This document shows positions 2,450 to 60,025 of a stretch of DNA of 64,000 nucleotides, in pieces. The stretch's first letter is position 1. Each line of letters starts with the position of its first letter. The position numbers and the translations under genes are program-made. The notes beneath the pieces are model-generated. The model searched no databases. It saw only the letters and a list, made by a program, of their open reading frames with translations, and was not told where the DNA came from. The stretch lies in NCBI RefSeq assembly GCF_054482525.1, contig NZ_CM137006.1. One strand, 5' to 3'.

Positions 2450-2623
2450 GACTCTGTAGGAGATCGCCAGGAAATAAGCGAATACTTAAAAAGATAAGAA
2501 TCGTTATTTTCATTTAAAATCAATATATTGCTTGTTAATCCTTAACTTTCATATGAAATTTTCCTTAAGGCATTGTCTGTAAGCGCCTTGTAAGACTTCG
2601 CGAAAAAGACGATTCTATCTTCG

Positions 2624-2989
2624 TCGACAGGGAGTCAGACAACGAAGTGAACATCAGGATGATGACACTTCTGAAGGACACACCAGGATGGTGTTTCAGG
2701 GAAAGGCTTCTGGATGAAGCGAAGAGGATGACGCAGGACGCGTTAAAGGACACCTCCAGGATGGAGAATGAGAACCGGTCAGGATGATTCGGTGGGTCAG
2801 GAAGGCCAGGGACACTTCAGGATGAAGTATCACATCGGGGTGGTGTGAGCAGGAAGCAATAGTTCAGGATGAACGATTGGCCGCAAGGCCAGAGGAAAAG
2901 TTGTCAAGGATGAGCAGGGAGCAACAAAAGTAGCTGGAATGCTGCGAAACGAACCGGGAGCACTGTGAATACAGTGCTCCCTTTTTTTA
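2624..2989 (+). ncRNA. csrB: CsrB small RNA (CsrA-sequestering decoy RNA)
   Basis: About 365 nt carrying around 20 CAGGA(U/A)G / GGA motifs (caggatg, aaggatg, ccaggatgg...), ending in a GC-rich hairpin ccgggagcactgtgaatacagtgctccc plus T7 at 2954-2988; lies between syd and yqcC as in K-12; 5' end approximate. Confidence 0.88.
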
Positions 2990-3033
2990 TTCCTGCTATC
3001 CTTCGCGGCAGTTTTTCTTATTGAGGTTGCTTT

Positions 3034-3363
3034 ATGACCACTCATGACCGCGTTCGTCTCCAGTTGCAGGCGCTTGAAGCGTTACTGCGTGAACATCAGC
3101 ACTGGCGAAACGATGAACCCCAGCCGCATCAATTTAACAGTACCCAACCGTTCTTTATGGACACCATGGAACCACTGGAGTGGTTGCAGTGGGTGCTTAT
3201 TCCGCGAATGCACGATTTGTTAGATAACAACCAGCCGTTACCGGGCGCTTTTGCCGTTGCTCCCTATTATGAAATGGCGCTGGCGACGGACCATCCGCAA
3301 CGCGCGCTTATTCTGGCTGAGCTGGAAAAACTGGATGCTCTTTTTGCGGATGATGCGAGCTAA
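3034..3363 (+). CDS. yqcC: DUF446-family protein YqcC
   Basis: 109-aa ORF MTTHDRVRLQLQALEALLREHQHWRNDEPQP..., immediately upstream of truC. Confidence 0.85.
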   Translation: MTTHDRVRLQLQALEALLREHQHWRNDEPQPHQFNSTQPFFMDTMEPLEWLQWVLIPRMHDLLDNNQPLPGAFAVAPYYEMALATDHPQRALILAELEKLDALFADDAS

Positions 3364-4145
3364 TGCTGGAAATACTCTATCAGGATGAATGGCTGGTTGC
3401 GGTAAATAAACCCTCCGGCTGGCTGGTTCACCGCAGCTGGCTGGATCGCGACGAGAAAGTAGTGGTCATGCAAACCGTGCGTGACCAGATAGGACAGCAT
3501 GTTTTTACTGCTCATCGTCTGGACCGACCCACTTCTGGTGTGTTGTTGATGGGATTATCCAGCGAGGCCGGACGGCTGCTGGCACAACAGTTTGAACAGC
3601 ACCAAATCCAGAAACGTTACCATGCGATTGTGCGCGGCTGGTTGATGGAAGAAGCGGTGCTGGATTATCCACTGGTGGAAGAACTGGACAAAATCGCTGA
3701 TAAATTTGCCCGCGAAGATAAAGGCCCGCAGCCAGCAGTGACGCATTACCGCGGTCTGGCGACCGTAGAAATGCCGGTAGCGACCGGACGTTACCCGACC
3801 ACGCGCTACGGCCTGGTGGAACTGGAGCCGAAAACCGGACGCAAACATCAGCTTCGCCGACATCTTGCCCATTTGCGCCACCCGATTATTGGCGATAGCA
3901 AACATGGCGATTTACGCCAGAATCGCAGCGGTGCTGAACATTTTGGTCTTCAGCGGTTAATGCTGCATGCCAGTCAGTTGTCATTGACGCATCCTTTTAC
4001 TGGCGAGCCGCTGACTATTCACGCGGGCCTGGACGACACCTGGATGCAGGCGTTATCACAATTTGGCTGGCGCGGTCTGCTTCCTGAAAATGAAAGGGTT
4101 GAGTTCAGTGCGCCATCGGGTCAGGATGGAGAGATAAGTTCCTAA
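3363..4145 (+). CDS. truC: tRNA pseudouridine(65) synthase TruC
   Basis: 260-aa [35 protein letters not shown]... with RluA-family motif [12 protein letters not shown]. Confidence 0.9.
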
Positions 4146-4612: not shown

Positions 4613-5046
4613 TATGTTCAGCGAGCGGTAAATGCCGTTTTAGCGGTGCTGAATCGAATCTTTTCAGGCAAATGCCAGTAAAAACTGCTTCATAGCGCGG
4701 ATTTTTACTGGCGTTTGCCTGGAGTCAAGCGATCCATTTCATACTCTTCTTTATTTCTTCGTTTTAACCCTTCCTTTCTTGTTTTTGTTTTCATTTCCGT
4801 GAAGTGGATTCCACCGTCCAGGGCTAATGCCAAAATCGGGCCTCATTGAACGCATTAATGTTGTGTTGTTGCACGGTGAGCCGCTATGGCGCGCTTTTTA
4901 TACTGCTATTGCCAGATATAAACACGCGCCGTATTCGGCGAACGACCTATAAAAACGGCAAAAAACACCCTACGTCACCTCTGATTTCCTGGCGATGTCG
5001 CAGTCCAGAGTGAGCGTGGCTAACGCGAATTTTCAGGAGTGCAACA

Positions 5047-25083: not shown

Positions 25084-25261
25084 ATCGTATTCCCATTTGT
25101 AATAGACAAAAAAAAGAGAAAAGTAAGCCGCCCTTTCAGGTGGATTACTTTTCTCAGGTCTCTAGTAATTGCAATAAGAAATAACATGGAAAGCAGAGGT
25201 GTTGTGTGAGAGTAATCACGCTTCTGCTTTTTAAAATTATTTGACAATTCGAATATCACAC

Positions 25262-25277
25262 TGTGATTACGATCACA
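25262..25277. promoter_or_regulatory. CRP-type box TGTGA-N6-TCACA in the yqcE/ygcW divergent intergenic region
   Basis: tgtgattacgatcaca has both half-sites perfect; a TTGACA hexamer lies 7 bp upstream (25250-25255). Confidence 0.45.
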
Positions 25278-25330
25278 TTAGCGATTATGCCCTTATGATA
25301 AAAATTATCTCCAGTTACCAGAGATAATGA

Positions 25331-25377
25331 GAAAGGTAACTTCCCTCTCGCGGGGGAAGTTACCTTTCTTTTTTTTT
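25331..25377 (+). terminator. Perfect 15-bp stem hairpin followed by T9, 25 nt upstream of the ygcW start codon
   Basis: gaaaggtaacttccc-tctcgcgg-gggaagttacctttc followed by ttttttttt; classical intrinsic-terminator architecture on the + strand. Confidence 0.55.
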
Positions 25378-25401
25378 GCCTTACGGAAATTGGAGCTAAC
25401 T

Positions 25402-56898: not shown

Positions 56899-58157
56899 GA
56901 TAAAAACTCTCTTTGGGCTCGTGAAAAAAAGGCTTCATCACCGAAGTTGCCAGATTTAAGGGCGAGTGAGACAGGCTTATCCAGTGCGTTTACCCACGGC
57001 ACGCCGGGGGAAATGGTTGGGCCAATATGAAACCCTTTTATTCCCAGGCTCTGTGTGACTACGCCGGAGGTCTCACCGCCTGCGACAATAAAGCGTGTCA
57101 CGCCTTCCGCGGCTAACCGCGTCGCTAGTTGAGAAAACAGTGTTTCTACTGCCTGACTGGCTTTTTGTGCACCGTATTGCTGTTGAATTGCTGCCAATGC
57201 GTCAGTGCTGGCGGTGGCAAAAACCAGTGGAGCAAGTACACTTTCCTGGCCCAGAACCCACTCTGCCAGTTCGTGTGCATAAGCGGCCAGAGTTTCAATT
57301 GAGAGGCAGCGTGCCACATCAACTTCACGGGCTGGTGCAATTTGACGGTAATGTGCTACCTGGCGGTTGGTCATTTGAGAGCATGAACCGGAGAGCACTA
57401 CGCCGCGCCCAGCGAGCGGATGCCCTGCTTTGCGAGCCTGGTTACCGTTTTCTTGCGCCCACTGCCGGGCAAGGCCAATCGCCAGACCAGAACCGCCCGT
57501 TACCAGTGGGGCATCGCGCAAGGCTTCTCCCTGAATTTCCAGATGGTGTTCGGTCAGCGCATCAAGCACCGCGTAGCGGTAGCCCTCTTGCTGTAAGCGA
57601 GCCAGCTCTTGACGAACGGCATCCACACCTTGTTCGAAAACATGTGCCGAAACGACGCCGCAGCGCCCTGTGGATTGCGCTTCAACCAGACGGGGAAGAT
57701 AGCTGTCGGTCATGGGATTTACCGGGTGATGGCGCATCCCAGATTCGGCCAGCAGTTGATTCATTACGAACAAATACCCCTGATAAACCGTACGTCCGTT
57801 GACCGGCAGGGCCGGAGAGAAGACCGTAAACGGCGTGTCGAGAGCATCCATTAATGCATCGGTAACCGGGCCGATATTACCTTTCGCCGTACTGTCGAAA
57901 GTAGAGCAGTATTTGAAATAGATCTGTTTGCAACCTTGCTGTTGCAACCAGCTCAGAGCCGCCAGCGATTGCTGTGTGGCTTCAACCACCGGACAGGAAC
58001 GCGTTTTCAGGCTGATCACCAGTGCGTCGATTGCTTCCGGCATTTTACCTGTTGGAACACCGTTAATTTGTACCGTTGGTAGACCGTTTTCCACCAGAAA
58101 ACTGGCGATATCCGTCGCGCCGGTAAAATCATCGGCGATAACGCCAATCTTGATCAT
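56895..58157 (-). CDS. ygbK: Four-carbon acid sugar kinase YgbK (OtnK)
   Basis: 420-aa ORF MIKIGVIADDFTGATDIASFLVENGLPTVQINGVPTG... Confidence 0.85.
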   Translation of the reverse strand: MIKIGVIADDFTGATDIASFLVENGLPTVQINGVPTGKMPEAIDALVISLKTRSCPVVEATQQSLAALSWLQQQGCKQIYFKYCSTFDSTAKGNIGPVTDALMDALDTPFTVFSPALPVNGRTVYQGYLFVMNQLLAESGMRHHPVNPMTDSYLPRLVEAQSTGRCGVVSAHVFEQGVDAVRQELARLQQEGYRYAVLDALTEHHLEIQGEALRDAPLVTGGSGLAIGLARQWAQENGNQARKAGHPLAGRGVVLSGSCSQMTNRQVAHYRQIAPAREVDVARCLSIETLAAYAHELAEWVLGQESVLAPLVFATASTDALAAIQQQYGAQKASQAVETLFSQLATRLAAEGVTRFIVAGGETSGVVTQSLGIKGFHIGPTISPGVPWVNALDKPVSLALKSGNFGDEAFFSRAQREFLS

Positions 58158-59062
58158 GATTTCGCTCCCGGTAGAGTGATGCCAGAGAAAATCTTGATAA
58201 CTGCGCTATCGTCTTCTTTCCCGTAACCCGCGTTACTGGCGCTGGTGAACATATTCAATGCTGTTGAGGCCAATGGCAGCGGGAAGTGCAGGGCTTTGGC
58301 TGTATCGGCAACCAGACCAAGATCCTTAACAAAAATATCGACGGCTGAATGCGGGGTGTAATCGCCATCCACCACATGACGCATCCGGTTTTCGAACATC
58401 CAGGAATTTCCGGCGGCATTGGTCACGACGTCATACATCACATCCAGCGGGATCCCCGCACGGGCTGCAAGTGCCATCGCTTCGGCTCCGGCAGCAATAT
58501 GTACGCCCGCTAACAACTGGTGAATAATTTTTACGGTCGAACCTAGTCCCGGTTCTGCACCTATGCGATAAACTTTTCCGGCAACGGCTTCCAGCACGGG
58601 TGCCAGTCGTTCAAAGGCAATATTGCTACCGGAGGCCATGACAGTCATTTCACCGTTAGCGGCTTTTACTGCACCACCAGAAACTGGCGCATCCAGCATT
58701 TCCAGATCGAATCCAGCCAGAGCGGTAGCAATTTCTTGCGCATCAGCACTAGCGATAGTGGAAGAAACCATTACTGCCGTACCGGGTTTCAGATGTTGTG
58801 CAACGCCTGTTTCACCAAACAGCACCTGTTTAACCTGGGCCGCATTGACCACCAGCACCAGCAGAGCGTCCAGTTTTTCGGCAAACGTCGCGGCGTTATC
58901 AGAAACCCCGCAAGCACCTGCCTCTTTCAACGTAGCGCAGGCATTGCTGTTCAGGTCTGCGCCCCAGGTAGAAAGACCTGCGCGGACACATGACAGTGCT
59001 GCTCCCATTCCCATTGACCCTAAGCCAACGATACCGACATGAAACTCAGATCCCGTTTTCAT
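58154..59062 (-). CDS. ygbJ: NAD-dependent L-threonate dehydrogenase YgbJ (LtnD; 3-hydroxyisobutyrate dehydrogenase family)
   Basis: 302-aa ORF MKTGSEFHVGIVGLGSMGMGAALSCVRAGLSTWGADLN... Confidence 0.85.
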   Translation of the reverse strand: MKTGSEFHVGIVGLGSMGMGAALSCVRAGLSTWGADLNSNACATLKEAGACGVSDNAATFAEKLDALLVLVVNAAQVKQVLFGETGVAQHLKPGTAVMVSSTIASADAQEIATALAGFDLEMLDAPVSGGAVKAANGEMTVMASGSNIAFERLAPVLEAVAGKVYRIGAEPGLGSTVKIIHQLLAGVHIAAGAEAMALAARAGIPLDVMYDVVTNAAGNSWMFENRMRHVVDGDYTPHSAVDIFVKDLGLVADTAKALHFPLPLASTALNMFTSASNAGYGKEDDSAVIKIFSGITLPGAKS

Positions 59063-59257
59063 CTGCTCTCCTTGTTAATTTAAGTGATATTTTGTTTGAT
59101 ATTGTGAATATAAGCGCTGGAAGATAACGATATGGTGAGCTGATTCACATAAATTAACATTGTGTGTTATTTTATGTGAACTAAGTGTTAGTTGCGCCGC
59201 GCACGTTTCGCAGGCAAATAGCGTAGAATGTCAGCAGGACAAAGGAAGGAGCAAAAG

Positions 59258-60025
59258 TTGATACCCGTAGAGCGTCGCCAAATCATCCTTGAGATGGTAG
59301 CTGAAAAAGGCATTGTCAGTATTGCTGAACTAACGGACAGAATGAATGTGTCACATATGACCATTCGTCGGGATTTACAAAAACTGGAGCAGCAGGGAGC
59401 CGTTGTGCTGGTGTCCGGAGGCGTCCAGTCTCCGGGACGCGTGGCGCATGAACCTTCTCATCAGGTAAAAACTGCGCTGGCAATGACGCAAAAAGCGGCT
59501 ATTGGCAAGCTGGCGGCAAGTCTTGTTCAGCCGGGAAGTTGTATCTATCTGGATGCGGGAACGACCACGCTAGCGATAGCACAGCATCTGATTCACATGG
59601 AGTCACTGACTGTGGTCACAAACGATTTCGTTATTGCGGACTACTTGCTCGACAACAGTAATTGCACAATTATTCACACTGGCGGTGCAGTGTGTCGGGA
59701 AAACCGTTCCTGTGTCGGGGAAGCCGCTGCGACCATGCTGCGCAGCCTGATGATTGATCAGGCTTTTATTTCTGCATCGTCATGGAGTGTGCGGGGGATT
59801 TCTACGCCAGCGGAAGATAAAGTCACGGTGAAACGGGCGATTGCCAGTGCCAGCCGCCAGCGAGTTTTGGTCTGTGATGCGACGAAATATGGTCAGGTGG
59901 CGACATGGCTGGCGTTACCATTAAGCGAGTTTGATCAGATTATTACAGACGACGGTTTGCCGGAGAGTGCCAGTCGCGCGCTGGCGAAGCAGGATCTCTC
60001 TTTGCTGGTAGCGAAAAATGAATAA
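59258..60025 (+). CDS. ygbI: DeoR-family transcriptional regulator YgbI
   Basis: ORF (M)IPVERRQIILEMVAEKGIVSIAELTDRMNVSHMTIRRDLQKLEQQG... from a TTG at 59258 preceded by AGGAAGGA (255 aa); an alternative in-frame ATG lies at 59228. Confidence 0.8.
   Translation: MIPVERRQIILEMVAEKGIVSIAELTDRMNVSHMTIRRDLQKLEQQGAVVLVSGGVQSPGRVAHEPSHQVKTALAMTQKAAIGKLAASLVQPGSCIYLDAGTTTLAIAQHLIHMESLTVVTNDFVIADYLLDNSNCTIIHTGGAVCRENRSCVGEAAATMLRSLMIDQAFISASSWSVRGISTPAEDKVTVKRAIASASRQRVLVCDATKYGQVATWLALPLSEFDQIITDDGLPESASRALAKQDLSLLVAKNE

Follow-up and report, generated by a model that had tools for sequence, protein, structure and literature searches.

The ygbI-ygbJ inverted repeat is probably one half of a YgbI operator array interleaved with a CRP site

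The divergent ltnD/ygbJ-ygbI intergenic region of the E. coli chromosome is 195 bp long and carries an inverted repeat almost exactly at its center, which raises the question of whether this repeat is the operator of the DeoR-family repressor YgbI, as the original prediction had proposed, and whether it is the whole of that operator. We addressed it in a window of 64,000 nucleotides (the whole stretch of DNA that was analyzed) and in orthologous loci. The gene context assumed by the prediction was confirmed: the NCBIfam equivalogs are YgbI, L-threonate dehydrogenase (LtnD/YgbJ), and 3-oxo-tetronate kinase, and the RefSeq annotation of identical E. coli DNA concurs. YgbI also matches the NCBIfam DeoR, AgaR, SrlR, GlpR, and UlaR models, below their cut-offs, and ygbI is followed by pphB and mutS. 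The main features are as follows.

58154 to 59062, minus strand: ltnD/ygbJ, L-threonate dehydrogenase, first gene of ygbJKLMN (NCBIfam NF043037, 473 bits)
59144 to 59180, no strand: inverted repeat (boxes S3 and S4, divergent), with a nonconserved 5-nt center at 59160 to 59164
59224 to 59229, plus strand: ygbI -10 hexamer TAGAAT, from the mapped start (Mendoza-Vargas 2009); kept as TAGAAT/TAAAAT
59258 to 60025, plus strand: ygbI, DeoR-family repressor, TTG start, 255 aa (NCBIfam equivalog NF040890, 484 bits)

The longest ygbI open reading frame begins at the ATG at 59228. The mapped ygbI transcription start (Mendoza-Vargas 2009) precedes the TTG by 21 nt, at ~59237, and since this position falls inside the longer frame, the true start is the TTG at 59258, as in current RefSeq. 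At the other end of the locus, the RefSeq name of ygbM in NZ_CP006632.1 (positions 2480 to 3256 of the record), "HPr family phosphocarrier protein," looks wrong for a 258-aa protein otherwise named 2-oxo-tetronate isomerase.

Both repression by YgbI and its in vivo occupancy of the intergenic region are published. In RNA-seq, deletion of ygbI increased ygbJ, ygbK, ygbL, and ygbM as well as ygbN by log2 values of 5.55, 5.15, 5.09, 4.62, and 3.95, respectively, the deletion permits growth on L-tartrate, and the one YgbI site that ChIP-exo detected in the genome lies between these two divergent genes, ygbI and ygbJ (Gao et al. 2021). Moreover, ygbI was mutated repeatedly in laboratory evolution on m-tartrate. 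The control region of the genes derepressed upon ygbI deletion thus contains the repeat, as expected of an operator. YgbI has recently been confirmed as a transcription factor and is listed with a single ChIP-exo interval, without a recognition motif. While the regulatory link between YgbI and ygbJKLMN is already known, the base-pair-level motif described here appears to be new: neither such a motif for YgbI nor a ygbI operator was found in the literature covered, and that literature yielded no YgbI electrophoretic mobility shift assay or footprint on repeat DNA.

The predicted position of the repeat was exact, with TTCACATAAA at 59144 to 59153, a 17-nt spacer, and TTTATGTGAA at 59171 to 59180. 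With up to 3 mismatches allowed, the pattern TTCACATAAA-N17-TTTATGTGAA occurs once in the window and in none of 100 shuffles. Taken alone, a perfect 10-nt inverted repeat is not rare, 2.2 ± 1.9 with a spacer of at most 30 nt being expected per shuffled 64-kb window. The repeat search nevertheless extended the arms to 16 nt (59144 to 59159 and 59165 to 59180, 15/16 complementary, around a 5-nt center), and the expectation for this 16-nt-arm version falls to 0.05 per shuffled window. The functional unit is thus not the pair of 10-nt arms around 17 nt but a pair of inverted 16-bp boxes. The box consensus is TGTkA-wTTTw-TGTGA-a, with its two pentamers offset by 10 bp, or one helical turn, and the four pentamers of the repeat stand in exact 10-bp phase (TCACA at 59145, TAACA at 59155, TGTTA at 59165, and TGTGA at 59175). 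On both strands of the window, TGTKA-N5-TGTGA occurs twice, for 0.33 expected, and the two occurrences are the two arms. The chance-control scan also returned another long inverted repeat at 4665 to 4730 of the window (16-nt arms, at most 1 mismatch, spacer of 17 to 25).

A position weight matrix (PWM) for the box was built from the orthologous sites and used to scan the 64-kb window. Scores of at least 13 bits occurred in three places, plus a fourth at 13.0, all within the ygbI-ygbJ region; such scores are partly circular at orthologous loci because the PWM was trained on those loci. A third copy of the box, at 59073 to 59087, also came from the repeat search. The four boxes are as follows.

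59073 to 59088, plus strand: S1, TGTTAATTTAAGTGAT, adjoining the ygbJ Shine-Dalgarno (PWM 19.2 bits)
59093 to 59108, plus strand: S1b, TGTTTGATATTGTGAA, weaker, 20 bp from S1 (PWM 13.0 bits)
59144 to 59159, minus strand: S3, the left arm, TGTTAATTTATGTGAA on the minus strand (PWM 21.6 bits)
59165 to 59180, plus strand: S4, the right arm, TGTTATTTTATGTGAA (PWM 21.5 bits)

Together they form two four-pentamer arrays in 10-bp phase, one all-direct (59073, 59083, 59093, and 59103) and one mirrored (59145 and 59155, facing 59165 and 59175). Four boxes with eight pentamers are the repeated half-sites that suit an oligomeric winged-helix protein. In the PDB, a sequence search with YgbI matched the DeoR C-terminal domain alone, and no DNA-bound structure of the family is known to show a four-pentamer mode. 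The idea that the repeat serves as a YgbI operator had the right kind of element in view and was incomplete, as S1 and S1b (59073 to 59088 and 59093 to 59108) belong to the same system.

Is this architecture conserved along with YgbI? By YgbI protein search and contig look-ups, we gathered 15 orthologous ygbJ(K)-ygbI intergenic regions, from E. coli, E. albertii, Salmonella, Entomohabitans, Scandinavium, five further relatives, Serratia, Yersinia, Dickeya, a Citrobacter portucalensis-type copy, and Pantoea. The divergent layout and S1, S1b, and S3 at near-constant spacing were present in 15/15 loci; a box occupies the S1 position in every taxon, that of Logan73 scoring below the PWM threshold. 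The recognition helix of YgbI, VSHMT(I/V)RRD(L/V)QKLE, is invariant except at its two conservative I/V and L/V positions among 11 orthologs, down to 60% identity. The motif thus travels with YgbI orthologs whose DNA-reading helix is conserved, as an operator should, and in 10 other loci of ~5.7 kb, hits of at least 14 bits were confined to the ygbI-ygbJ/K intergenic region, Yersinia excepted. S4 is limited to 10 taxa, those with a YgbI of 70% identity or more, where the center measures 4 to 6 nt, and the inverted repeat is consequently restricted to these 10 taxa.

In the 10-taxon alignment, the best-conserved intergenic segments are S3 (majority fraction of 0.89, 8/16 invariant columns) and S4 (0.92, 9/16), for 0.56 in the center of the repeat. 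G2, A5, and T11 to A15 are invariant in both arms, and the variable positions are not mirrored between them; conservation of specific bases with unmirrored variation is the signature of a protein site and not of a hairpin. Among the five E. coli strains compared, single-nucleotide polymorphisms of the arms fall only at linker positions, and B2-type strains have T>A at 59150 (9/10), so that the perfect 10/10 arm match is not conserved even within E. coli. The conserved feature is the four pentamers, not the perfect 10/10 arms.

In Serratia, Yersinia, Dickeya, and the C. portucalensis-type locus, S4 is absent and two overlapping boxes, e.g., TAAAATCACAATTATTATCAC, lie right after the ygbI -10, around +1. 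These boxes are likely an autoregulatory operator that was lost in the Escherichia/Salmonella-type clade. The Yersinia massiliensis-type contig carries, at 3485 to 3572, a second whole module upstream of the gene, adjacent to ygbI, for an MFS transporter; this module consists of box, box, -10-like sequence, CRP-like TGCGA-N6-TCACA, and box (the equivalents of S1, S1b, and S3) and suggests a larger YgbI regulon in Yersinia.

How the boxes relate to transcription depends on a CRP site that shares a pentamer with the repeat and on the ygbJ promoter.

59131 to 59152, no strand: CRP site, core GGTGA-N6-TCACA at 59134 to 59149, center at 59141.5 (sequence and published in vitro binding)
59107 to 59112, minus strand: putative ygbJ/ltnD -10 TATATT (reverse complement of AATATA), from geometry; start at ~59100

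At 59134 to 59149, GGTGAGCTGATTCACA agrees with TGTGA-N6-TCACA at 9/10 core positions (1 mismatch), and the GTG of the core is invariant in the 10-taxon clade. CRP does bind the site in vitro, according to Table 1 of a 2026 Footprint-seq preprint, where a novel K-12 CRP site "ygbI / ygbJ," taTGTGAatcagaTCACCata, is given an estimated Kd of 8.4 nM. As this sequence maps to 59131 to 59151 on the other strand, the outer pentamer of S3, TCACA, is the right half-site of CRP. This pentamer is explained equally well by CRP, which counts against reading it as part of a YgbI operator. On the opposite arm, the flanks of the S4 TGTGA contain no TCACA partner in any taxon; a second CRP site using this pentamer was rejected on that ground, and CRP cannot explain the conservation of S4, for which a second factor is needed.

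Counting 41.5 bp downstream of the CRP center on the ygbJ strand leads to 59100, with TATATT at -12 to -7 and no -35. CRP would thus act at -41.5 of the putative ygbJ start, which resembles class II CRP promoters (GGTGA-N6-TCACA at this distance, a good -10, and no -35). Taxa as distant as Serratia (TACATT) retain the -10 hexamer (TATATT/TACATT), at the same 32 nt from TCACA; no experimentally mapped ygbJ start site was found in the literature. Relative to the putative start, S1b lies at -8 to +8, S1 at +13 to +28, S3 at -44 to -59, and S4 at -65 to -80, so that S1b overlaps both the putative -10 and the start site. Relative to the start mapped for ygbI, S4 spans -72 to -57.

Elsewhere in the window, a perfect CRP consensus core, TGTGATTACGATCACA, occurs at 25262 to 25277, with a second near-consensus site at 25205; the former appears to be the ygcW/yqcE site of the Footprint-seq table (Kd of 1.7 nM). 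Near this core, a strong inverted repeat starts from 25330 (25329 to 25380), with perfect 16-nt arms 8 nt apart.

We propose that the inverted repeat is probably half of a YgbI operator array, i.e., of a conventional multisite operator of the DeoR family interleaved with a CRP site. YgbI contact with the boxes, the ygbJ start, competition with CRP, looping, and the effector are what we infer from this arrangement, in a model that would run as follows. Without inducer, a YgbI oligomer would sit on both four-pentamer arrays. The S1 and S1b array (59073 to 59108) would span the -10, the start, and the leader of a ygbJ promoter that depends on CRP in class II fashion, and, lying there, it would more likely be the one through which YgbI directly blocks RNA polymerase. 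On S3 and S4, YgbI would exclude CRP because the TGTGA pentamer of S3 is the CRP half-site. One oligomer may bridge both arrays, which are ~72 bp apart center to center. The repeat would probably feed back on ygbI too, whose mapped start is 57 to 93 bp off. Finally, the inducer releasing YgbI would probably be a phosphorylated four-carbon acid-sugar intermediate, by analogy with the habit of the family and with VdtR of Brucella.

A more ambitious version of this model is tentative, and we regard it as possible rather than probable. The 16-bp box would be a composite element in which one TGTGA is read by repressor and activator, YgbI would act mainly as a CRP anti-activator at a class II promoter, and tetramers would bind four pentamers in strict 10-bp phase, all-direct in S1/S1b and mirrored in S3/S4. 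The clade bearing S4 would then have swapped boxes at ygbI +1 for a single bidirectional mirrored operator.

Several observations run against the operator reading, the ChIP-exo interval among them.

~59180 to 59211, no strand: published YgbI ChIP-exo interval, MG1655 2859304 to 2859334 in the old numbering, converted, ±3 nt

Once converted, this interval abuts the right arm without covering the repeat. The uncertainty of about ±3 nt comes from the offset between the old and new numberings, 1975 to 1978, which is drawn in part from old gene coordinates. Conservation is lower in this interval than anywhere else between the two genes (0.46; invariant columns, 0/31). The ChIP-exo site lists are noisy, that of YehT being without its known target. 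The arm spacer of 4 to 6 nt among taxa likewise counts against an operator, since a rigid dimer would not tolerate it, as does the resemblance of both arms to a TTCACA -35 with an extended -10 18 bp away.

In one alternative, the repeat would be a by-product of promoters and of CRP, with the left arm as the CRP half-site, the arms as -35 hexamers of divergent extended -10 promoters, and YgbI bound elsewhere (at 59180 to 59211 or only at S1/S1b). The promoter scan did return TTCACA-18-TATTTT with an upstream TG on the plus strand, and the promoters that Shimada 2014 predicted beneath a SELEX peak of RNA polymerase holoenzyme, TTCACA-18-TATTTT (ygbI) and TTCACA-16-GTTAAT (ygbJ), already took both arms as -35 hexamers; the in vitro binding of CRP to the left-arm pentamer and the position of the ChIP-exo interval, adjoining the repeat and not over it, go in the same direction. 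We nevertheless consider this explanation unlikely. The ygbI start, the only one mapped (~59237, with -10 TAGAAT), does not use TTCACA-18-TATTTT and misfits a promoter in the left arm, and the right arm used as a -35 would place CRP at ~+3 of the catabolic promoter. The inner pentamers TAACA and TGTTA are conserved although they lie outside the CRP core, and the same box recurs at S1, at S1b, and at ygbI +1 of the distant taxa, where a -35 is impossible. The absence of any invariant column in the ChIP-exo interval also argues against YgbI recognition there.

Could the boxes instead be read by another regulator of TGTTA direct repeats, such as ArcA, imposing redox control? In the ArcA box, GTTAATTAAATGTTA, the TGTTA repeats are spaced by 11 bp center to center, and our box resembles it. 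In the Reg-Seq follow-up, a single dicC promoter oligonucleotide pulled down both ArcA and YgbI, and the dicC promoter has TGTTA/TAACA pentamers. Of the other promoters that pulled down YgbI in Reg-Seq, idnK contains one 13.8-bit box overlapping the idnK CRP site, and leuABCD contains nothing above 9.2 bits; for these promoters, the oligonucleotide sequences are absent from the paper text. At the ygbI-ygbJ locus, however, the pentamers are spaced by 10 bp and not 11, and the second one is invariantly TGTGA, which departs from the ArcA box. Furthermore, the boxes follow ygbI orthologs and are found neither in the rest of the 64-kb window nor in the sequence flanking the other loci; the literature yielded no data on ArcA here. 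Altogether, this makes ArcA or its like a very improbable reader. A structure of the nucleic acid itself, be it a leader RNA hairpin or a DNA cruciform, seems barely conceivable. The RNA of either strand does fold into a hairpin (-14.5 to -14.8 kcal/mol, z of approximately -5), and the loop length differs among taxa. Against this, the repeat lies upstream of the mapped ygbI start and is excluded from the transcript by the putative ygbJ start too, on neither strand is the repeat followed by a T-run, the scan gave 0 terminator-like sites, Rfam gave no match, and base identity is kept more than pairing, with 0 to 4 mismatches per 16 pairs and no compensation at variable positions. With its AT-rich stem and no covariation, the repeat has the features neither of an intrinsic terminator nor of a structured RNA. 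The RNA hairpin was rejected, as the sequence folds as any palindrome would, with no compensatory pattern and no plausible transcript.

The multisite YgbI operator favored here has known counterparts. DeoR of E. coli binds several deo operators, each a 16-bp palindrome TGTTAGAA.TTCTAACA, cooperatively and with looping. The YgbI region shares with this system the protein family, the TGTTA half-site, a dyad, several sites, and a sugar catabolic operon that is also CRP responsive. It differs in that each half consists of two direct pentamers 10 bp apart, that one array (S1/S1b) is all-direct, that the arrays are ~72 bp apart whereas deo operators are separated by hundreds, and that YgbI has its own equivalog family, NF040890. 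GlpR, UlaR, and AgaR of E. coli are repressors of the DeoR/GlpR family whose divergent or tandem promoters combine multiple operators with CRP sites; for UlaR, a tetramer-to-dimer change is reported in the literature. A repressor gene beside a catabolic operon, phased operator repeats, CRP coregulation, and the expectation of a sugar-phosphate-type effector are common to these systems and to YgbI, while the operator sequences differ and the overlap of a repressor pentamer with a CRP half-site at -41.5 is what we propose here. Another counterpart is the DeoR-type VdtR of Brucella, which represses a homologous ltnD/otnK acid-sugar (erythronate/L-threonate) cluster. It binds the ltnD promoter at several sites, and neither free threonate nor free erythronate releases it. 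VdtR belongs to a different phylum-level lineage, and no motif was defined there, so that operator sequences cannot be compared.

As DeoR/GlpR-family sugar regulons are expected to look this way, no general principle is changed by these results. The box TGTkA-N5-TGTGA, the four-box layout, and the overlap with CRP would nonetheless give a testable model for the control of the L-threonate/D-erythronate operon, ygbJKLMN being opened by mutation during the adaptation of E. coli to tartrate as a growth substrate. The box motif could also serve the annotation of YgbI regulons across Enterobacterales.

Within E. coli, the sequence between the two genes is fairly polymorphic, with 95 to 99% identity in most genomes and 90 to 95% in 80 of them. 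Window positions 59000 to 59320 had no match in 839 of 5,426 complete genomes, so that ~15% of strains have a missing or interrupted ygbI-ygbJ junction. A 9.3-kb contig labeled as an Oscillospiraceae metagenome-assembled genome (RKCM01000024.1) carries a ygbI gene whose product shares 99% identity with the E. coli protein and is probably a binning contaminant. In the complete genome of E. coli KFu019 (NZ_CP091700.1), a Mu-like prophage is inserted at window position ~59131/59132, with neighbors annotated as a MerR-family regulator, an HTH protein, and a transposase-domain protein, and with a junction sequence that looks like a Mu left end; this insertion leaves the ygbJ core promoter on one side and the CRP site, the repeat, and ygbI on the other.
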